Positions 3,248 through 11,284 of a stretch of 24,000 bases of DNA are shown here, one piece after another. The stretch is taken from contig DATBMY010000539.1 in the NCBI GenBank assembly GCA_036554605.1, positions 7,010 through 31,009 of the forward strand, written 5' to 3'. The notes beneath the pieces are model-generated. The model ran no database searches. It saw only the letters and a program-made list of their open reading frames with translations, and was not told where the DNA came from. The DNA comes from Blastocatellia bacterium (lineage in GTDB: Bacteria; Acidobacteriota; Blastocatellia; UBA7656). Positions within the stretch are counted from its first letter, which is position 1, and each line of letters starts with the position of its first letter. Both the position numbers and the translations under genes were made by a program.

Positions 3248-4267
3248 TTACTCGCTCACCTCTACGCGCCAGGTGCGGTCGGCGATTAAAGATGTTTCGA
3301 TGTTTACGTCGATGAATCTGCGTATGACCTCGATGTTGGTCGTGGCGTGGCGCGAGAGGCGCAGCGCCGTAAACGATCCGCCGCGCGCGAGCGCAAGTGG
3401 CACGAGAAGCTGGTCCGCGAGGTGCTCGCCGACTGCGGCGCGGGCGGCCAGGTACTCCCGCGCGTTTTTCGCCGCGCGCTCGGCAACGGCTTCGGCTCTT
3501 ACGCCTCGCTCGCCGAATCCGGTGAAGAGCTCCGAAACGTGCTCGCTTTCGATCTCGATCATCACGATGTTTCCCGGCCCGCGCGAGTTATCGACCTTCT
3601 CAGCCGCCAGCCATTCGTCGCGCCACGAAAGCTTACGATTGATGACGCCAAGCTCCCGCTCGGCGATGCTCAGAGGGAGGTTTGCGACGACGGCCCTCGC
3701 GCGCCGGCCGGTCACCTCTCCGCGTTCCAGAAGATCTAGCCTGTGAAGCGCGCCTCCGGGCTCTATGCTTACAGAGAACTTTCCGCCGCCCGCCGGATAA
3801 AAGCCCGGCCGCTCAAGCTCCGCCGTCACTCGGGCGCCCATGCGATTGATGAGCGGAATAAAGCACCTGTCGAGGAAATCGAACGGCGGCGCGAAAGGAT
3901 TGTGCGTGCCGCCTTCGAGCGTCATCGTGGCAGGCTCGGGCGCCAAAAGCAGGGCGGGCAGGACGGTTTGGAGCACGAGCGTCGCGCTCCCGGCCGTGCC
4001 TACGGCGAACGAATGGTAGCCAGCCGTTATGGTCTGCGGTGCAAAGGTAAGCTCGCGCGACCCTATTGCCGCGCCCGACACCTCCGCGCATCCGACCCTC
4101 GCGGCGGCATTCACCGCCGTCAGGTGTTGCCGGAGCAAACCCGGCGTCTTGCGCCCCGCGCGAATGTTCTCTATGCGAAAAGGCTTGCCCGTTACAAGCG
4201 ACAGCCCGAGCGCCGTGCGCAGTACCTGCCCGCCCCCTTCTCCAAATGAACCGTCGATAGTGAACAT
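3248..4267 (-). CDS. rtcA: RNA 3'-terminal phosphate cyclase
   Basis: 339 aa. The N-terminus IDGSFGEGGGQVLRTALGLSLVTGKPFRIENIRAGRKTPGLLRQHLTAV is the canonical RtcA signature. It is the last gene of the rtc operon. Confidence 0.95.
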   Translation of the reverse strand: MFTIDGSFGEGGGQVLRTALGLSLVTGKPFRIENIRAGRKTPGLLRQHLTAVNAAARVGCAEVSGAAIGSRELTFAPQTITAGYHSFAVGTAGSATLVLQTVLPALLLAPEPATMTLEGGTHNPFAPPFDFLDRCFIPLINRMGARVTAELERPGFYPAGGGKFSVSIEPGGALHRLDLLERGEVTGRRARAVVANLPLSIAERELGVINRKLSWRDEWLAAEKVDNSRGPGNIVMIEIESEHVSELFTGFGERGVRAEAVAERAAKNAREYLAARAAVGEHLADQLLVPLALARGGSFTALRLSRHATTNIEVIRRFIDVNIETSLIADRTWRVEVSE

Positions 4268-4282: not shown

Positions 4283-4675
4283 TCACGTTTGAGATGATTT
4301 CTGCTCATTCCAATTCAACCCCGGACCATCAAGCAACAGCGATATGTTATTTAGAATGTCGCGTCCTAATATACCTGCCTCCTGGTTCGCTATCAGAAAT
4401 CGCCCTCTGAAGATACGCTTCAGAAAAACTAAATCGAGCTCTACAACCTGCGCAATACTCGTGCTTCCATCGAAGGTCATCAGTTCATAGTTCAGATTCG
4501 GATCAATAGATATGCCGAGCTGATTCACAGAAGCTCGCGGGACCAAGGTGACATCCGCGCCTGAGTCTATCAGCATGGGTACACCGGACAAAGTAGCGCC
4601 ATCGGTTTGATTGCGGAGAGTTACTCTTGCCAGCGGTGCGGGTGGGGTGAACAGGTCCGCATCATATGCCGGCAT
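4283..4675 (-). CDS. Retropepsin-like (clan AA) aspartic protease domain protein
   Basis: 130 aa with the catalytic-type motif LIDSGADVTLV and the C-terminal ILGRDIL motif typical of single-lobe retropepsin folds. It overlaps the upstream ORF by 14 nt. Spot counts give about 48% GC. Confidence 0.7.
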   Translation of the reverse strand: MPAYDADLFTPPAPLARVTLRNQTDGATLSGVPMLIDSGADVTLVPRASVNQLGISIDPNLNYELMTFDGSTSIAQVVELDLVFLKRIFRGRFLIANQEAGILGRDILNNISLLLDGPGLNWNEQKSSQT

Positions 4676-4913: not shown

Positions 4914-5099
4914 TCACGAAAGTCGATTATTAATATCATACTCCTTCGACAAACTCTCGGCTTCTCGCAGGGCTCCATCTAGCGCCCACAGCGCGCTATC
5001 GCGAAATTGCGGCTCAACGCAATATGCAAATCCTTTGGTTAGTCGCAGCAAATCCTTGGCGCAGCCTGGTACTCGATACTTCAGCTGACTCGACAGCAA
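4914..5099 (-). CDS. Hypothetical 61-aa ORF, possibly a gene remnant
   Basis: The only in-frame start is TTG, there is no obvious RBS, and I recognise no motif. It fills the low-GC gap between rtcB and the small protein. Confidence 0.2.
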   Translation of the reverse strand: MLSSQLKYRVPGCAKDLLRLTKGFAYCVEPQFRDSALWALDGALREAESLSKEYDINNRLS

Positions 5100-5103
5100 A
5101 TCT

Positions 5104-7575
5104 CTAATAATGGCCGCTCGACTTCTTGCCGCCTTTCTTCATCTTTTTTATCTTTCTCTCGTCCTCGCCCTTGAGCGACGCAACGGGCCAGAGCCTGTAC
5201 TCTATCTTCGCAAGTCCCGCGCCCGTGACAGACTCGATGACCTCCGCGGAAGGCTTATAACAGGGCGCGGCTTCGTCGATAGGCACGCGGCCGTTGGTAT
5301 TGACAAGTATTCCCGCCTCCGCGTACTCGCGATCAATGTCGCGCTGGCTGAGGCTGCGCGCCGCCTCGCCCCTCGACAACCGTCGACCCGCGCCGTGGTT
5401 TACCGAATAGCCGCTGTTGACCGCCGCCGCTTCCGGGCGAAGCACGTAGCTCCAGTCCTTGTTCGAGCCGGGAATCAAGACCGGATGCCCCGCGTCTTCC
5501 CATATAGTTCCCTTGAGCCCGGGGTGCCCGGCCGGAAAAGCGCGCGTGGCCCCTTTGCGATGCACCCAAACCTGGCCAAACTCCGGGTGCCATTCCTTCT
5601 GCACCAGGTTGTGGCTGATCTCGTATATCAACTCCAGCTCGCCGCCGAATACATCGCGAAACGCTTCGGCAATCTGCTCGAATATGATCAGCCGGTTGAT
5701 GATGGCAAAGTTGCCGCCCGACGCCACCGCGTTCAGGTAATCGCGATAGTGCTCGGACTCGGGCGTGAAGTAACCGAGATCGATATCGGTTATCACCTCC
5801 GGCTTTTCCGCCTTTGCCATCTCGAAATAGTTCGTCGCGAGCCCGTGGCCCCACCCGCGCGAGCCGGTATGCGCCTGAACAAAGAGCGTGCCCGTCTCTT
5901 CGCATCGCTGAAGCTCTATGAAGTGATTGCCTCCGCCGAGCGAGCCGAGCTGCTCGATCCCGCGCTCGGGCCTGCCCTTGCCGCCGAGCGGCGGCTGCCA
6001 ATCGTCGTCAACCGGCAAGCGGTGGCGCTCGGCGCGGCTGCGGTCAAACGTCGCGCCGTATTTTTCGACATAGTATTCAGCGCCGCCGCGCACTAGGTTT
6101 TCAAACTCGCCGCGGTCGAGCCGCCCGAGCTTTACGCTCTTGCCGCCCGCGCCCATGTTGACCTTCTCCATCACCGCGCGGTTGAACGCCATCTTCTTAT
6201 CAAAGGTCGCCGCACCGGCCTCGACATCGGACTTCGCGCTGACCATCCCGCAGTTATGGACAAACACACCTGCGTCTAAAGCAAAGTTTCCGTAGCCCGG
6301 CACCGTCAGACAGTAAACCTCAGCAAATGTGTCAAGTGGCTCGACCGAAACCACTTTGTGATTATAGCCATGCTTCCAATGGCGATGGTTGTGTATGCCA
6401 AAGCCACCGCCAGGTACTTCCTCGCCGCAGTTCTCACAAGTGTATATACGGTGCGCTACTTCTGATGATTTGACCCTACCAGCCTCACTTTTGTTGTAAG
6501 CGATTAAGTACCTCCTGCCCCTCTCGCCATTGCCGTTTGCGATTGCATTTGCTTTTTCAATGCCGGGATTCTGACTTCTATACTTTGCCAGGTTGGCTCT
6601 GCCTCTTTCTGCAAAGTATGCATGACCTTCTACTGTCTGCGCTTTGGCGCCAAGTGCCGCGACTCGCTTCGTTTCAAATTCCGGCGACCTGAAATGAGCG
6701 TTCCTTTCGCTTATGGACCTGTGATAGCTCATATGATCTCTATCGCCCATGAACTGGAGGTTCTCAATTCGGTTGTCGCTCGGATTAAAGTTCTTGTGAT
6801 GTATGATCGTTCTTTGTCCCTCAATAGCAGGTATCTTGCCCAGCAACCCGCATCGGGCCATAATCCAGTGAACCTTATGATTGATACCTGTCGCGGGGTG
6901 CCGTACCATCGTATAGCCATCTTTATCTTTGCGCATATCGAATGGCATCAACGATGTGCCTTCAGACAGAACGCTTGCCTGTCGGTACGTTCCATCGCGA
7001 AGCATAAACTCGTGGTCGGGAGTGCAGATTATCTCTCGTCCATTGTCCAGCGTGACCTTAACAAGGGGAGCATTCACGCGCGTCTTTTTTGCCGTCGCCT
7101 TGGCCACCTCAATCTCATGCTCATCAGAAAGAGCGTAGACCAGTATCTCCTCGCCTGATTGAGCAAGCTGGCCGATTGGATGACTGTAGCCGTCAACCGT
7201 CGGAACAAGAGTATCGGCAACAAAGCACCCGATGTCGTAGCCGACCGGTCCCATCGCTACAGCGCCCTCCTCGCCGTCCGTCAGTATCACGCAGCCCACC
7301 GGCACGCCGTATCCGTAATGCGTGTCCGGGGTGATCACAACGAGCTTCACGCCGGGAAAGCGCGTGGCGTTTACGATCTGGCGATAGATAATATCTTCGG
7401 TCTCGCTCAGCAGCTTCGGCGTCAGAAATATTCTTACAGGCACGTCGCCCGTATCTTCGGTCTGAAGCGTGTAGTATCCTTCGCCGTTCCACCTGGCCAG
7501 ATGCTTCCAGTTGTCGGCGTTCTTCAATCTCTTCGCCAGCTTTAATGCTTTCGCGTCTTCAGTCTGCTTACCCAT
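5104..7575 (-). CDS. rtcB: RNA-splicing ligase RtcB precursor containing an intein
   Basis: 823 aa. The extein carries RtcB motifs: ITPDTHYGYG, GYDIG|CGM (split by the intein), GSRGWGH, SHNLV, IPGSNKDWSYVL, NHGAGRRLSRGEA and APCYKP. Removing the intein leaves 498 aa. GGAGG RBS upstream of the ATG. Confidence 0.95.
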   Translation of the reverse strand: MGKQTEDAKALKLAKRLKNADNWKHLARWNGEGYYTLQTEDTGDVPVRIFLTPKLLSETEDIIYRQIVNATRFPGVKLVVITPDTHYGYGVPVGCVILTDGEEGAVAMGPVGYDIGCFVADTLVPTVDGYSHPIGQLAQSGEEILVYALSDEHEIEVAKATAKKTRVNAPLVKVTLDNGREIICTPDHEFMLRDGTYRQASVLSEGTSLMPFDMRKDKDGYTMVRHPATGINHKVHWIMARCGLLGKIPAIEGQRTIIHHKNFNPSDNRIENLQFMGDRDHMSYHRSISERNAHFRSPEFETKRVAALGAKAQTVEGHAYFAERGRANLAKYRSQNPGIEKANAIANGNGERGRRYLIAYNKSEAGRVKSSEVAHRIYTCENCGEEVPGGGFGIHNHRHWKHGYNHKVVSVEPLDTFAEVYCLTVPGYGNFALDAGVFVHNCGMVSAKSDVEAGAATFDKKMAFNRAVMEKVNMGAGGKSVKLGRLDRGEFENLVRGGAEYYVEKYGATFDRSRAERHRLPVDDDWQPPLGGKGRPERGIEQLGSLGGGNHFIELQRCEETGTLFVQAHTGSRGWGHGLATNYFEMAKAEKPEVITDIDLGYFTPESEHYRDYLNAVASGGNFAIINRLIIFEQIAEAFRDVFGGELELIYEISHNLVQKEWHPEFGQVWVHRKGATRAFPAGHPGLKGTIWEDAGHPVLIPGSNKDWSYVLRPEAAAVNSGYSVNHGAGRRLSRGEAARSLSQRDIDREYAEAGILVNTNGRVPIDEAAPCYKPSAEVIESVTGAGLAKIEYRLWPVASLKGEDERKIKKMKKGGKKSSGHY
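6253..7227 (-). mobile_element. Intein (325 aa, residues C117-N441 of the RtcB precursor) with an HNH_3-type homing endonuclease
   Basis: Block A CFVADTLVPTVDG, block B TPDH, block F VYCLTVPGYGNFAL, block G VFVHN followed by the +1 Cys (CGM). HNH core DGYTMV...HKVHWIMA...IIHHKNFNPSDNRIENLQFM..DHMSYH at about nt 6721-6921. Spot counts give about 50% GC against 60-65% in the exteins. Confidence 0.9.
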
Positions 7576-7629
7576 CTGTTGAATGCCTCCCGCTTATAGG
7601 TTCCCCTACGGCTCAAGCGCGGTCAAGCT

Positions 7630-7740
7630 GGCGCGACAAGTGATGTCGAAAGATTGCTCTACCGTTGAGCTACGGCTCGCACCAGAGTGGAGCCGCCGGG
7701 ATTCGAACCCGGAACATGTACTTCCAACCGCATTCGCGCC
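7630..7740 (-). ncRNA. yrlA: YrlA-like bacterial Y RNA with a permuted tRNA-mimic domain (module 3)
   Basis: Closing helix GGCGCGA/UCGCGCC and second helix GUUGGAAG/CUUUCGAC. T arm CCGGG-UUCGAAU-CCCGG. Acceptor-like helix CGGCUC/GAGCCG closed by a loop. Then UA and the D arm GCUC-AACGGUA-GAGC. It lies between rsr and rtcB. Confidence 0.8.
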
Positions 7741-7756
7741 ACAACCGCTCATACGA

Positions 7757-7857
7757 GTGGCGACAAGATTGGTGAGAGTTCCTCCGGTTGCCCGGAGCGG
7801 GGATTCGAGCCCCAACCTTAACAGGTTGTCCATGTACTCCCACCGGCATTCGCCACC
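7757..7857 (-). ncRNA. Y-RNA-like module 2, variant tRNA-like four-way junction
   Basis: Closing helix GUGGCGA/UCGCCAC and second helix GGUGGGAG/CUCUCACC. T-arm-like GGGG-CUCGAAU-CCCC. GNRA-capped hairpin CUCCGG-GCAA-CCGGAG. Hairpin CAACC-UGUUAA-GGUUG. Confidence 0.6.
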
Positions 7858-7860
7858 GAA

Positions 7861-7922
7861 GGCCGACAAGTTTCTGTTCGAGACGATACATGTAGTAGAT
7901 GTAGTCCCGACGGCATTCGGCC
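7861..7922 (-). ncRNA. Y-RNA-like module 1, minimal 62-nt stem-loop without a tRNA-like domain
   Basis: Closing helix GGCCGA/UCGGCC, the same AUGCCG / CUUG internal-loop signature, second helix UCGGGAC/GUCUCGA and apical hairpin UACAU-CUACUAC-AUGUA. Confidence 0.5.
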
Positions 7923-7929
7923 TTAGAGT

Positions 7930-9483
7930 TTAGAGCTTCACCGCGCTGATGACGCCGACCCAGTGGTCCGCGCTCATGCGGCCCGCGGCGAACTCTGCTA
8001 TCACGTCAAACACCTGATCGGAAAAACCGCCGATGTTCATTATGTCATCGCGCTCCTTCGCCTGCGTCGTGGAGTACGGCTGTATGTCTATGCAGACGAG
8101 ACGGGCGCGCGGGTTGCGCTGTTTGAACTCGCTCCACTCGGCCATGGTAGCCGTGCCACGGCCGCGACCCGCGTCAACCCACGATTCGTTATCCGATACG
8201 TAGATGACAAGGTCGCCCCTGGCCTTGCGCCTGTTCAACAGGGCTAGCGGCGCGCTGCAATTCGTGCCGCCGCCCCCTACGGAGGCGAGCTTCCTCGCGT
8301 TCTTCATAATGCGCTCGCCTCCGTGCAACTTTATATCTACAACATCGCACTCGAACGGCAGCACCTCGGCCTCGGGGTTTGCCCTCAGGACCGATGCCGC
8401 CACCAGCGCCGCCACGTCCACGCAGCGCACCGCCGTCGTCGAGCCGCGCCTGTAGCCGGTCACGGGAGATTGCATAGATCCCGATACGTCCGGCAGTACA
8501 TAAACCTTGCCTTCAACCTTCGGCACATTCGAAGTGGCAATCTCCATCGCCTCTTCGAGCGCCTGCCTGACGGCGCGCGGCACCGCTTCGTCCGCGCTCA
8601 CATAGGCGGCGAGCAGCTGATAAGGAAAGACGCGCGCCGCCCTTATCGCCTTCGGGTCGCGCAGGCGGCCGGCGATAAGCTCCGTCATACCGCGCTTCTC
8701 AAATACTTTGTGGCGCGCAAACGTGTTCAGGTTCTGTCGCGTCATCTGCCACGTAGCGTTGCGGGCAATCTCGGCCCACTCGCTCGCGCCAAGCTCGAGC
8801 GCCGTAAGCATCTGAAACGGCACGTCGGGAACCGCGCGCGTGGCGCCTCGCTTGAACGCCTCGAAGTCGCGCACGAGTCCGGGGAGCGCATCCTCGTCGT
8901 GCTGCTTGCCTATCAAGTATCCGAACAGCGACCGGCGGCTCGCGCTACCCGGCTTCGGGTGGACCATCTTTATGATGTCGGCCATCGAAGGCTGCTGGCC
9001 CACGCTTGCCCGGAATACCGATTCATCGTCGCGCGCTTCAAGCCAGCCTCGCACCATGCGCTTCGGGGCAGACCCGAGCGACTTGCGGCCTACCGCGCCC
9101 GATCTCATTATCTGAACAAAGGTGCGCAGCATTCGGCCGTTGTCGATCACGCGCGGAAAGATCTCGGTGAACAGCTTCCGGTCGCGCACCGAAAGCAGCG
9201 CGCAAAGCAGCGCGGGCATGTCCTTCATAAACCCTCGCTCGCGACAATAAACGGCCGTCAGCGCAAGAAACTCGCCCGACACGCGGTTGGATAGCTCAAG
9301 CACGGTCTTGAGCTGATCTTCGGCCCTCGCATAGAAGGTCGAGTTCAGGCACCCGGTCGCGGCATACTGCGCAAGCTCCGCCTCGGGCGCAAACCTGTAG
9401 GCCGGCGCGCCCTCTTCGTTTCGCGCGTCCGCGGCCGCAACGAGCCAGCCGCGCAGCGAATGAAACAGATTCCTGTTTGCCAT
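7930..9483 (-). CDS. rsr: Ro60-related TROVE/vWA ribonucleoprotein (Rsr)
   Basis: 517 aa. TROVE-type N-terminus (NEEGAPAYRF...TGCLNSTFYA). C-terminal vWA domain with the metal-ion-dependent adhesion site (MIDAS) motif DVSGSM. Sits in an operon with Y-RNA-like elements and rtcB. Confidence 0.92.
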   Translation of the reverse strand: MANRNLFHSLRGWLVAAADARNEEGAPAYRFAPEAELAQYAATGCLNSTFYARAEDQLKTVLELSNRVSGEFLALTAVYCRERGFMKDMPALLCALLSVRDRKLFTEIFPRVIDNGRMLRTFVQIMRSGAVGRKSLGSAPKRMVRGWLEARDDESVFRASVGQQPSMADIIKMVHPKPGSASRRSLFGYLIGKQHDEDALPGLVRDFEAFKRGATRAVPDVPFQMLTALELGASEWAEIARNATWQMTRQNLNTFARHKVFEKRGMTELIAGRLRDPKAIRAARVFPYQLLAAYVSADEAVPRAVRQALEEAMEIATSNVPKVEGKVYVLPDVSGSMQSPVTGYRRGSTTAVRCVDVAALVAASVLRANPEAEVLPFECDVVDIKLHGGERIMKNARKLASVGGGGTNCSAPLALLNRRKARGDLVIYVSDNESWVDAGRGRGTATMAEWSEFKQRNPRARLVCIDIQPYSTTQAKERDDIMNIGGFSDQVFDVIAEFAAGRMSADHWVGVISAVKL

Positions 9484-9531
9484 TGCCGGTCACCTCATCT
9501 GATCTTTATTCTTCGCGACGTGCGTAACAGT

Positions 9532-9547
9532 CGCACGCGCCGTGCCG
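9532..9547 (-). promoter_or_regulatory. Candidate sigma54 (-24/-12) promoter of the rsr-Y RNA-rtcBA operon
   Basis: The - strand reads CGGCACGGCGCGTGCG against the consensus TGGCAC-N5-TTGC, with GG and GC at the correct 10-nt spacing. It lies 49-64 nt upstream of the rsr ATG and faces away from the sigma54 activator gene rtcR. Confidence 0.55.
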
Positions 9548-9598
9548 CGTTTTTGAGACCGGCCCGCGCCAAGGTAAAATCCCTGAGTATAAAAGAGT

Positions 9599-9627
9599 TT
9601 TGACGAGACGAAGAGAAATCTCTACTA
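9599..9627 (+). promoter_or_regulatory. Candidate sigma70-type promoter for rtcR
   Basis: TTGACG-N17-TACTAT in the AT-rich divergent spacer, about 55 nt upstream of the rtcR ATG. Confidence 0.3.
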
Positions 9628-9679
9628 TGTCAGGGTTGAAGATTTATAGCATTAACGATATTGATTTAGATTTTATTCT

Positions 9680-11284
9680 ATGACGGAAAAGGATCAGGTA
9701 ATCATAGGGTTGCTCGGCCCGTCGCTCGACAACGGGCTTGGGATGGATCGCTGGGAGCGGTGGCGGCCCTCGGTCGCGCTTTGCCAGCACCAGGATCTTT
9801 TGATAAAGCGATTCGAGCTTTTATACGAGCGGAAATTCGGGCGGCTCGCCGAGCAGGTCGCCGACGACATCGCGCACTGCTCGCCCGAAACCACGGTGCG
9901 CAAAGCGGAGGTGAAATTCGACGACCCGTGGGACTTCGAGCAGGTCTATGGGGCGCTGCACGATTTCGCGCGCGCTTACAGGTTCGACACCGAGCGCGAG
10001 CAATACCTCATACACATCACCACCGGAACGCACGTCGCGCAGATATGCATGTTCTTGCTCACCGAGTCGCGCTACTTTCCGGCGAAGCTCATACAGACGT
10101 CGCCGCCCGACCGGCGCGACAAAAAAGGGGCGGGCCGTTTCGAGATCATCGATCTCGACCTGTCGAAGTACGACCGCATAGCGTCACGCTTCCAGCAGGA
10201 GCAGCGCGAGGCGTTGCAGTTTCTCAAGTCGGGCATAGAGACGCGCAATCCGGGTTTCAACCAGCTTATAAGCCGGGTCGAGCAGGTAGCCATAAATTCC
10301 GCCGACCCGGTCTTGCTGATGGGGCCCACGGGCGCGGGCAAATCCCGCCTCGCGCGTCGCATATATGAGCTCAAGCGCGCGCGCCATCAGGTGAAGGGCG
10401 AGTTCGTCGAGGTCAACTGCGCCACCCTGCGCGGAGACGGCGCGATGTCGGCGCTGTTCGGGCACGTGAAGGGATCATTTACGGGAGCGGTGCGCGACCG
10501 CGCCGGGCACCTGCGCGCCGCCGACAACGGGCTTCTCTTTCTTGATGAGATCGGCAGCCTCGGCCTCGACGAGCAGGCGATGCTGCTTCGCGCGCTCGAA
10601 GACAAGAGCTTCTTTCCGCTCGGCGGCGACCGCCAGGTCCGTAGCGATTTTCAGCTGGTCGCCGGGACCAACAGCGACCTCGCCGTAGCGGTTCGCGATG
10701 GACGATTCAGAGAGGATTTGCTCGCGCGAATAAACCTCTGGACGTTTCGGCTGCCGGGGCTGCGCGAGCGCATCGAGGATATAGAGCCGAACCTTCAATA
10801 CGAGCTTGACGAGTACGCCCGCCGCGCCGGCAAGCAGGTGACCTTCAGCCGCGAGGCGCGCGAAAAGTTTCTGAGGTTCGCCGCCTCGCACGAAGCGCGG
10901 TGGTCGGGCAATTTTCGCGACCTCAACGGCGCGATCATTCGCATGGCGACGCTCGCGCCCGGCGGGAGAATTTCGATTGAAGTGGTCGAAGAAGAGATAG
11001 CGCGGCTGCGCCTGGCATGGCAAACTCAATCGGCGGGCGAGGGCGGCGACCTCGTCGAGCGAATCGTCGGACGCGAGCGGGCCGAAGAGATCGATTATTT
11101 CGACCGCTTGCAGCTCGCCTCGGTGCTGAAGGTATGCCGCGAGTCGCGCTCGCTTTCCGACGCGGGCCGCGCGCTCTTTACGGCGTCGCGCGGGCGCAAG
11201 AAGAGCGTCAACGATGCCGACCGCTTGAGAAAATATCTGATGCGGTTCGGGCTCGAATGGCGACAGCTTAAAGATATGCTTTGA
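9680..11284 (+). CDS. rtcR: Sigma54-dependent transcriptional activator RtcR (CARF domain, AAA+ domain, HTH)
   Basis: The N-terminus closely resembles my recollection of E. coli RtcR (RWERWRPSVALCQ...NPWDFEQVYGALHDFARAYRF...YLIHITTGTHVAQICMFLL...RYFPAKLIQTSPP). Walker A GPTGAGKS. GSFTGA (GAFTGA-type) loop. Confidence 0.95.
   Translation: MTEKDQVIIGLLGPSLDNGLGMDRWERWRPSVALCQHQDLLIKRFELLYERKFGRLAEQVADDIAHCSPETTVRKAEVKFDDPWDFEQVYGALHDFARAYRFDTEREQYLIHITTGTHVAQICMFLLTESRYFPAKLIQTSPPDRRDKKGAGRFEIIDLDLSKYDRIASRFQQEQREALQFLKSGIETRNPGFNQLISRVEQVAINSADPVLLMGPTGAGKSRLARRIYELKRARHQVKGEFVEVNCATLRGDGAMSALFGHVKGSFTGAVRDRAGHLRAADNGLLFLDEIGSLGLDEQAMLLRALEDKSFFPLGGDRQVRSDFQLVAGTNSDLAVAVRDGRFREDLLARINLWTFRLPGLRERIEDIEPNLQYELDEYARRAGKQVTFSREAREKFLRFAASHEARWSGNFRDLNGAIIRMATLAPGGRISIEVVEEEIARLRLAWQTQSAGEGGDLVERIVGRERAEEIDYFDRLQLASVLKVCRESRSLSDAGRALFTASRGRKKSVNDADRLRKYLMRFGLEWRQLKDML

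Follow-up and report, generated by a model that had tools for sequence, protein, structure and literature searches.

Three probable Y RNA genes in tandem between rsr and rtcB in an RtcR-controlled RNA-repair operon of a Blastocatellia bacterium

A 24,000-nucleotide (nt) stretch of DNA from a Blastocatellia bacterium (GenBank assembly GCA_036554605.1, contig DATBMY010000539.1, positions 7,010 to 31,009 of the forward strand), termed the window here and numbered from its first letter, contains rsr, the gene for a Ro60 orthologue of 517 amino acids (aa) (7930 to 9483, minus strand; Pfam Ro60 vWA, 5e-17; TROVE, 1e-5). This gene lies directly upstream, and an 823-aa reading frame for the RNA ligase RtcB (5104 to 7575, minus strand; Pfam RtcB, 1.6e-90, in two stretches) directly downstream, of an array of Y RNA-like modules in the 354-nt spacer between the end of rsr at 7930 and the start of rtcB at 7575. 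The last gene of the operon is rtcA, for RNA 3′-phosphate cyclase (3248 to 4267, minus strand; Pfam RTC, 1.2e-77, and RTC_insert), and rtcR, for a sigma-54-dependent activator, is divergent from rsr (9680 to 11284, plus strand; Pfam RtcR, 2.8e-86; Sigma54_activat, 6e-47). By these Pfam assignments, a divergent rtcR followed by rsr, rtcB and rtcA on one strand constitutes the layout of an RtcR-controlled operon, and the locus is the known RtcR-controlled rsr-Y RNA-rtcB-rtcA RNA-repair operon, present here in a Blastocatellia-like soil acidobacterium. The spacer very probably consists of three distinct Y RNA genes under RtcR/sigma-54 control.

Read on the minus strand, the spacer is made up of three consecutive modules, at 7922-7861 (module 1), 7856-7757 (module 2) and 7740-7630 (module 3), separated by gaps of 4 and 16 nt. 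All three lie 8 to 300 nt past the stop codon of rsr and on its strand, a position within the range expected for YrlA RNAs (about 4 kb from rsr, same strand). Of these, the first is a plain YrlB-type hairpin, the second mimics a tRNA in part, and the third is a full, permuted tRNA mimic of the YrlA type. An earlier note on this DNA had proposed three back-to-back modules with particular helices, loop motifs and a conserved UACAU; all of these were present as stated, and RNAfold, run without constraints, returned the proposed helices for each module.

The modules share a core that consists of a closing helix (helix 1) ending in CGA/UCG, an asymmetric internal loop, a second helix (helix 2) and then YUACAU. 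The internal loop has AUGC(C)G on its 5′ strand opposite ...CUUG on its 3′ strand, such that the core reads CGAAUGC opposite CUUGUCG. The pattern CGAATGC-N9-TACAT occurs three times in the window, in every case in the minus-strand spacer, as compared with an expectation of 0.09 from shuffled sequences, none of which (0 of 100) reached three occurrences. Chen et al. (2014, PMC4201824) proposed GNCGAAN0-1G as the Rsr recognition site, and their YUAY motif opens the variable region. The first of these motifs is exact in module 1 (GCCGAAUG) and module 2 (GGCGAAUG), and module 3 (CGCGAAUG), with C instead of G at the first position, was counted as carrying it. The likeness to the Ro-binding helix of known Y RNAs pointed out in the earlier note was borne out: the 5′ motif is the published one and UACAU corresponds to YUAY (PMC4201824).

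Module 1 (7861 to 7922, minus strand) belongs to class A of the four classes, A to D, distinguished below. The sequence and RNAfold agree with its description as a bare 62-nt stem-loop, in which the closing helix is GGCCGA/UCGGCC, the second helix is UCGGGAC/GUCUCGA, and UACAU/AUGUA lengthens the stem up to a 7-nt loop. Its predicted free energy is −19.4 kcal/mol (z = −2.3; matched by 5 of 200 shuffles). As a long unbranched hairpin with the Rsr motif, encoded between rsr and a YrlA, it has the form of YrlB, and the Rfam YrlB model aligns weakly with it. The apical loop, CUACUAC, has pyrimidines at 5 of 7 positions; a pyrimidine-rich loop was rejected as a feature of class A, for which the mean pyrimidine fraction is only 0.54.

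Module 2 (7757 to 7856, minus strand; class B, 100 nt), identified from sequence, RNAfold and a weak match to Rfam YrlA, has GUGGCGA/UCGCCAC as helix 1 and GGUGGGAG/CUCUCACC as helix 2. Its interior contains, besides a GCAA-capped acceptor-like hairpin (CUCCGG/CCGGAG), a T arm that has been kept (GGGG-CUCGAAU-CCCC) and, on the 5′ side of that arm at the variable-arm position, a further hairpin (CAACC-UGUUAA-GGUUG). The GNRA-capped miniature acceptor described for this module in the earlier note was present; the suggestion that other hairpins replace its D arm did not hold as worded, since the D arm is absent, the T arm is kept and the extra hairpin occupies the variable-arm position. Of the three modules' RNAfold energies, that of module 2 is −48.0 kcal/mol (z = −4.3).

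Module 3 (7630 to 7740, minus strand; class D) is a compact YrlA-type Y RNA of 111 nt by Rfam YrlA, RNAfold and RNAalifold, with GGCGCGA/UCGCGCC as helix 1, GUUGGAAG/CUUUCGAC as helix 2 and a predicted energy of −46.5 kcal/mol (z = −3.05). After YUAY come a T arm (CCGGG-UUCGAAU-CCCGG), a loop-closed acceptor stem of 6 base pairs (bp), one bulge and 3 bp, UA, and a D arm (GCUC-AACGGUA-GAGC). The tRNA-like domain is thus permuted at the anticodon loop, and this order, which defines YrlA, was found in module 3 only. Strictly, the name YrlA does not apply to module 1, which lacks the whole tRNA-like domain, or to module 2, which lacks a D arm. YrlA RNAs are bound and stabilised by Rsr and undergo tRNA-like modification by TruB and DusA. 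ARAGORN detected neither a tRNA nor a tmRNA in the window, the former as expected because the arm order is permuted. Weak Rfam matches to tmRNA and mascRNA reflected the T arm and were discarded, and the animal-type Y_RNA family was absent among the nine Rfam matches with E values up to 10 in positions 7500 to 8000.

The covariance-model check suggested by the earlier note gave an end-to-end match of Rfam YrlA to module 3 (67.3 bits; E = 2.4e-15; model positions 1 to 114), together with weak matches of YrlA to module 2 and of YrlB to module 1. These matches were seen in E-value mode only, and each spans the full length of the model. Four orthologues of module 3 exceed the YrlA cut-off (85.6 bits in locus L006, 81.7 in L035, 69.9 in L001 and 69.4 in L003; L numbers denote the loci examined), and with them the claim of a permuted tRNA mimic of YrlA order was upheld.

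Related loci were then compared, comprising 80 loci from species-representative genomes and 6 from metagenomes (86 in all), with Rsr proteins 62 to 79% identical to that of the window. With modules defined by motif only, in a way that makes no use of pairing (CGAATGC, 8 to 11 nt, TAC and the next TTGTCG), 199 modules were found in 75 loci. In these modules the 4 nt flanking the core in helix 1 pair at 3.84 of 4 positions, as compared with 2.18 ± 0.14 for permuted partners and 1.3 to 1.9 in shifted register. Helix 2 pairs at 6.5 of 7 positions versus 5.33 ± 0.05 for permuted partners, the register being left free for real and permuted partners alike; it also exceeds within-class permutations in classes A, B and C, the permutation for class D being uninformative with seven sequences only. 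For the T stem, with the loop motif as the anchor, pairing is at 4.18 of 5 positions versus 2.89 ± 0.12 for permuted partners. Placement was restricted too: across 804 kb, 194 modules lie on the strand of rsr at most 1.5 kb downstream of it, 10 are found in other places on that strand, and the opposite strand has none.

The four classes were assigned by the sequence of helix 1 and differ in independent features too. Class A (5′ strand GGCCGA) is a hairpin of about 62 nt with no T or D arm; 42 of 45 members fold as a single hairpin, with a median loop of 7 nt. Of 60 class B members (5′ strand UGGCGA), 51 have a T arm, only one has a D arm, and 51 have GG after UACAU. An acceptor-like hairpin of at least 5 bp, tested per sequence (mean z = −3.5), is present in 51 of 53 class B members and often carries a GNRA cap. 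Class C (GCGACGA or GCGGCGA) is a mixed group of longer RNAs with a variable hairpin, T arm, acceptor-like stem and D arm, and class D (5′ strand GCGCGA) is the compact YrlA, with T and D arms in all nine members. The class order from 5′ to 3′ after rsr is conserved: 20 loci have A-B-C, ten have A-B and nine have B-C, other loci show ABCCD, ABCD and the like, and the window itself is A-B-D. Its closest relatives deviate a little from this: L001 and L082 have four modules, an additional YrlA-like one lying between B and D, and L081 and L083 have A, B and that additional module.

Compensatory change was detected in all helices tested in the homologous spacers, as the earlier note had anticipated. 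In the class A alignment (45 sequences), 95.2% of cells pair and six pairs are changed on both sides; none of 500 shuffles equalled this, and slid controls gave 27 to 55%. The class B alignment (53 sequences) has 92.2% of its cells paired, and changes on both sides affect nine pairs and 83 cells; slid controls gave 42 to 62%, and none of 500 shuffles reached either the observed paired fraction or the covariation score. Because gaps were misplaced in the MAFFT alignment of class B, RNAalifold returned no more from it than helix 1 and a portion of the T stem, and pairs were therefore counted on an explicitly written structure. For the nine class D sequences, RNAalifold returned helix 1, helix 2, the T arm, the acceptor stem and the D arm, with 9 of 31 pairs changed on both sides.

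Covariance models built for class B (R1) and class A (R2) were searched against both strands of 834 kb at E ≤ 0.01 and gave 268 and 158 matches, respectively, every one on the strand of rsr. Module 2 scored 78.7 bits with R1 and module 1 scored 67.9 bits with R2, each module being itself part of the respective seed. The class A hairpin is present in about 60 of the loci examined, and there are about 68 class B matches of at least 58 bits. The R1 and R2 sets were merged for the 75 loci with at least 1.2 kb of sequence downstream of rsr, and the numbers of loci with one to seven modules were 1, 10, 33, 17, 7, 6 and 1, respectively. At least three modules are thus present in 64 of the 75 loci, three is the commonest number and seven the maximum. 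An initial view of three modules as unusual was rejected, three being the commonest count in the clade.

Arrays that are unannotated in the gene tables, in spacers of 640 to 800 nt, were also found on plasmids of cultured Proteobacteria, where rtcB follows the array except in Pseudomonas amygdali. The plasmid of Rhizobium etli IE4771 has five modules between rsr and rtcB (L088 5610-6289), three of which score 97.9, 63.4 and 32.8 bits with Rfam YrlA. There are four modules on the plasmids of Methylosinus trichosporium OB3b (L089 5572-6117) and Xanthomonas sacchari (L091 5632-6283), and five, all short hairpins with no rtcB after the array, on a megaplasmid of P. amygdali (L090 5659-6035).

Several points weigh against reading the spacer as three Y RNA genes. 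At gathering thresholds, Rfam gave no match of any kind in the window, tRNA included. Module 3 falls 1.7 bits under the YrlA cut-off of 69; module 2 (25.6 bits; E = 0.0028) is far short of it, with a confident alignment of the outer stem only, and module 1 (24.4 bits; E = 0.014; full length) is far short of the YrlB gathering threshold of 97. The class definitions are ad hoc, with class C mixed, and R1 and R2 were seeded in part with modules from the window. Within a class, the core and much of helix 1 hardly vary, and part of the signal is therefore conservation rather than covariation. The core contains the published Rsr recognition motif; by homology, Rsr would bind the modules and the array would be processed into separate RNAs. 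Finally, modules 1 and 2 are only 4 nt apart, so the production of separate Rsr-bound RNAs would need precise processing.

This last point bears on the strongest alternative, which is that the spacer forms one uncut structured RNA, either a scaffold of about 300 nt with three Rsr sites or an element with a role in cis, for example in the stability of the rsr message or the translation of rtcB. The gaps of 4 and 16 nt would suit such an RNA, as would a Shine-Dalgarno-like GGGAGG between the end of the array and the start codon of rtcB and the result of a search of the minus strand from 7400 to 9800, spacer included, which detected no terminator-like site and no sigma-70-like promoter site. Each module, however, is closed by its own terminal helix, and in Salmonella and Mycobacterium smegmatis a common precursor is cleaved to give the rsr-adjacent Y RNAs, which accumulate as discrete species bound to Rsr (PMC4201824). 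Related loci vary from one to seven modules with gaps of 4 to more than 300 nt, and in many of them no rtcB follows the array; this freedom of number and spacing, together with the arrays that lack rtcB, argues against a fixed cis-acting structure. We consider an uncut RNA improbable.

Another reading sees in the modules either tRNA-derived repeats that have decayed or a small element, mobile or repetitive, which came to lie beside rsr by chance, in each case with no role linked to Rsr. The T and D arms held by modules 2 and 3 and the large tRNA gene arrays beside rsr in some relatives could be taken in this sense. Such an origin would not account for the linkage of the modules to rsr, on its strand, in at least 75 loci and their occurrence nowhere else in the window, for the maintenance of a permuted arm order and a non-tRNA core with compensatory changes, or for module 1, which has no tRNA-like part (nor did ARAGORN find a tRNA in the window), and it is judged highly improbable. 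A chance likeness in G+C-rich intergenic sequence, for which only the modest z score of module 1 could be cited, is refuted by three occurrences of the core motif against the 0.09 expected, by the E value of the YrlA match and by conservation of the modules in dozens of genomes.

The preferred interpretation, of three distinct Y RNA genes, was also viewed in the context of the surrounding operon. A candidate sigma-54 −24/−12 element, GGCACG-N5-TGC (9533 to 9546, minus strand), is located about 50 nt upstream of the rsr start codon; it is the sole match in the window, with 0.32 expected by chance, which is weak evidence on its own. Elements of this kind were found upstream of rsr in loci that have an RtcR match and in none of those confirmed to be without rtcR; one further match lies in L063, a locus that belongs to neither set. 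The same rtcR/rsr/rtcB/rtcA layout is present in about 35 related loci and on the plasmids of R. etli, Methylosinus and Xanthomonas. The nearest homologues of the rsr product are named 60 kDa SS-A/Ro ribonucleoprotein or TROVE-domain protein and come from metagenome-assembled genomes of Pyrinomonadaceae and Blastocatellia (Acidobacteriota). RtcB is split by an intein with an HNH endonuclease (Pfam Intein_splicing, 4.9e-20, residues 130 to 441; HNH_3). In L001, the closest relative, the distance from the end of the Y array to the C-terminal RtcB match is too short to accommodate an intein, and the insertion therefore looks specific to the genome of the window. A retropepsin-like aspartyl protease frame of 130 aa (4283 to 4675, minus strand) lies between rtcB and rtcA, and spacing suggests that it is absent in L001 and L081.

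A number of further observations were made on the distribution and form of these RNAs. A further Y RNA class was encountered in which the tRNA-like domain is permuted at the D loop rather than at the anticodon loop. Its order is UACAU-GGUAGAGC, an anticodon-arm-like hairpin, a T arm, a loop-closed acceptor stem and UAGCUCAG, such that the D stem closes the whole domain; examples are L027 4888-5014, L047 7752-7879, L055 2251-2387, L062 7095-7207, L074 6709-6828 and L088 6045-6179, the last in R. etli. Isolated class A hairpins occur 2.6 to 6.2 kb upstream of rsr, on its strand and away from the main array, in loci without an RtcR match (L004 1689-1759, L005 3882-3952, L009 385-449, L033 2375-2441 and L048 1548-1612). 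Rfam tRNA matches of 32 to 41 bits that straddle adjacent Y modules (L012 7223-7341, L091 5965-6100 and L088 5689-5814) are pseudo-tRNAs, read from a D arm together with the T arm of the module that follows, and constitute a trap for annotation.

Several Pyrinomonadaceae genomes have a dense array of about 25 to 35 tRNA genes in the 5 kb that immediately precede rsr, on its strand (L017 548-4862, L049 571-4930, L054 79-4892 and L064 1129-4766, with rsr starting at 5001 in each). No RtcR match was found in the loci with tRNA arrays, which number five with L004, and in four of them RtcB is unmatched as well. Ro60, tandem tRNA-like Y RNAs and a tRNA gene array thus occur together in those genomes; the window contains no tRNA gene.

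Rsr proteins 62 to 70% identical to that of the window, with Y arrays of the same classes, were found in L003, L025, L027, L039, L043, L047, L066 and others, from genomes labelled Acidobacteriota, Verrucomicrobiota, Planctomycetota, Sumerlaeota, Thermodesulfobacteriota, Clostridia and Heliomicrobium; this wide spread of labels reflects either horizontal movement of the whole cassette or mislabelled bins. No match to the spacer was detected by blastn against plasmids, and none to module 3 against Escherichia coli genomes. Among phages, the sole blastn match of the spacer was through a 44-nt piece of module 3, to two Streptomyces phages. In the Streptomyces phage Moab (L087 3001-3044; record positions 70586 to 70629), a stretch without annotation that shares 89% identity with the 5′ half of module 3 is located 0.7 kb upstream of the gene for the phage's Ro-like protein and beside a phage tRNA gene cluster, and is probably a phage YrlA.

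By homology with Salmonella, M. smegmatis and Deinococcus, a single operon transcript would be made when RtcR senses damaged tRNA, and the modules would be trimmed from this RNA and stabilised by Rsr bound to the core. Each apical module might then gate the Rsr ring or tether a different partner, such as the exonuclease PNPase or tRNA-recognising proteins, in which case one protein could form several distinct ribonucleoprotein complexes. A broader proposal, which we put forward tentatively as possible rather than probable, is that the ordered arrays are a conserved Ro60 adaptor cassette. Each class (hairpin, D-arm-less mimic, full mimics and the rarer D-loop-permuted form) would send Rsr to a different partner or act as a decoy for a different tRNA-targeting enzyme or toxin; the GG after UACAU in class B would replace G18-G19 of the D loop and dock with the T loop, forming an elbow without a D arm; and the array would belong to a wider tRNA-damage-response island. 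Such an island would explain the location of the array beside rtcB and rtcA in some genomes and beside arrays of 25 to 35 tRNA genes in others.

Y RNAs have been studied by experiment in few bacterial species, each shown to have two. At least in this large Rsr lineage, which spans Acidobacteriota, Verrucomicrobiota and several Proteobacteria, rsr is usually followed by three to seven paralogous Y RNAs in a set order, graded in their mimicry of tRNA. Two of the RNA classes, the widespread hairpin class and the D-arm-less class, are missed by Rfam. The array represents a natural deletion series of the tRNA-like domain, helpful for assigning a role to each arm, and culturable carriers with four or five modules (R. 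etli, M. trichosporium OB3b, X. sacchari and P. amygdali) are open to direct Rsr pull-downs.

Two Y RNAs each have been demonstrated experimentally for Salmonella, M. smegmatis, Deinococcus radiodurans and the Thermus phage phiLo, and to this extent the impression in the earlier note that three in one operon is richer than known was justified. It was not justified with respect to sequence surveys: Chen et al. (2014, PMC4201824) listed 355 YrlA-like sequences in 276 genomes, every match within 4 kb of rsr, so that multiple YrlA copies were already on record, and three is the norm in the clade studied here. The same authors reported YrlB homologues in Salmonella only and a T arm in the YrlB of M. 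smegmatis, and expected more Y RNAs to be found.

Module 3 resembles YrlA (RF02553; Salmonella Typhimurium, with more than 250 homologues; PMC4201824) in its position 3′ of rsr, its strand, the CGAAUG and YUAY motifs, the arm order and the full-length model match. It differs from YrlA in the C at the first base of the GNCGAA motif and in an acceptor-like stem where 6 bp, a bulge and 3 bp take the place of 7 bp. Conservation of the 3′-strand CUUGUCG is strong in the arrays described here, whereas Chen et al. recognised only the 5′ strand in Salmonella and M. smegmatis. Module 1 is like the YrlB of Salmonella (RF02565) in being the first RNA after rsr, an unbranched small-loop hairpin that has GAAUGC...GGGAYUACAU...UUGUCG in common with the YrlB consensus over its full length; the hairpin class is, however, present in about 60 loci here, in contrast to the restriction of YrlB homologues to Salmonella in the earlier survey. 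Module 2, compared by description, resembles the YrlB of M. smegmatis and Yrn1 of D. radiodurans (PMC4201824) in having a T arm without a full D arm and in lying beside a full YrlA. Its class is set apart from them by helix 1 UGGCGA/UCGCCA, GG after UACAU and often a GNRA-capped acceptor-like hairpin, and Yrn1 is described with a different arm orientation.

In the literature searched, which did not cover the Wolin-laboratory reviews of 2018 and 2020 or the Ro60 review of 2019, there was no description of ordered arrays of three to seven modules, of a widespread hairpin class or of a coherent D-arm-less class, and the name YrlC was unused. The locus as a whole corresponds to the Salmonella rsr-yrlBA-rtcBA operon (Hughes et al. 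2020, PMC7790460) in its divergent rtcR, rsr, Y RNAs, rtcB, rtcA and sigma-54-type promoter candidate, and differs from it by its three Y RNAs, against two in Salmonella, by the intein within rtcB and by a retropepsin-like frame between rtcB and rtcA. The system itself is therefore already known; what is new here is the third, D-arm-less class of Y RNA and the occurrence of ordered multi-class arrays as the norm.

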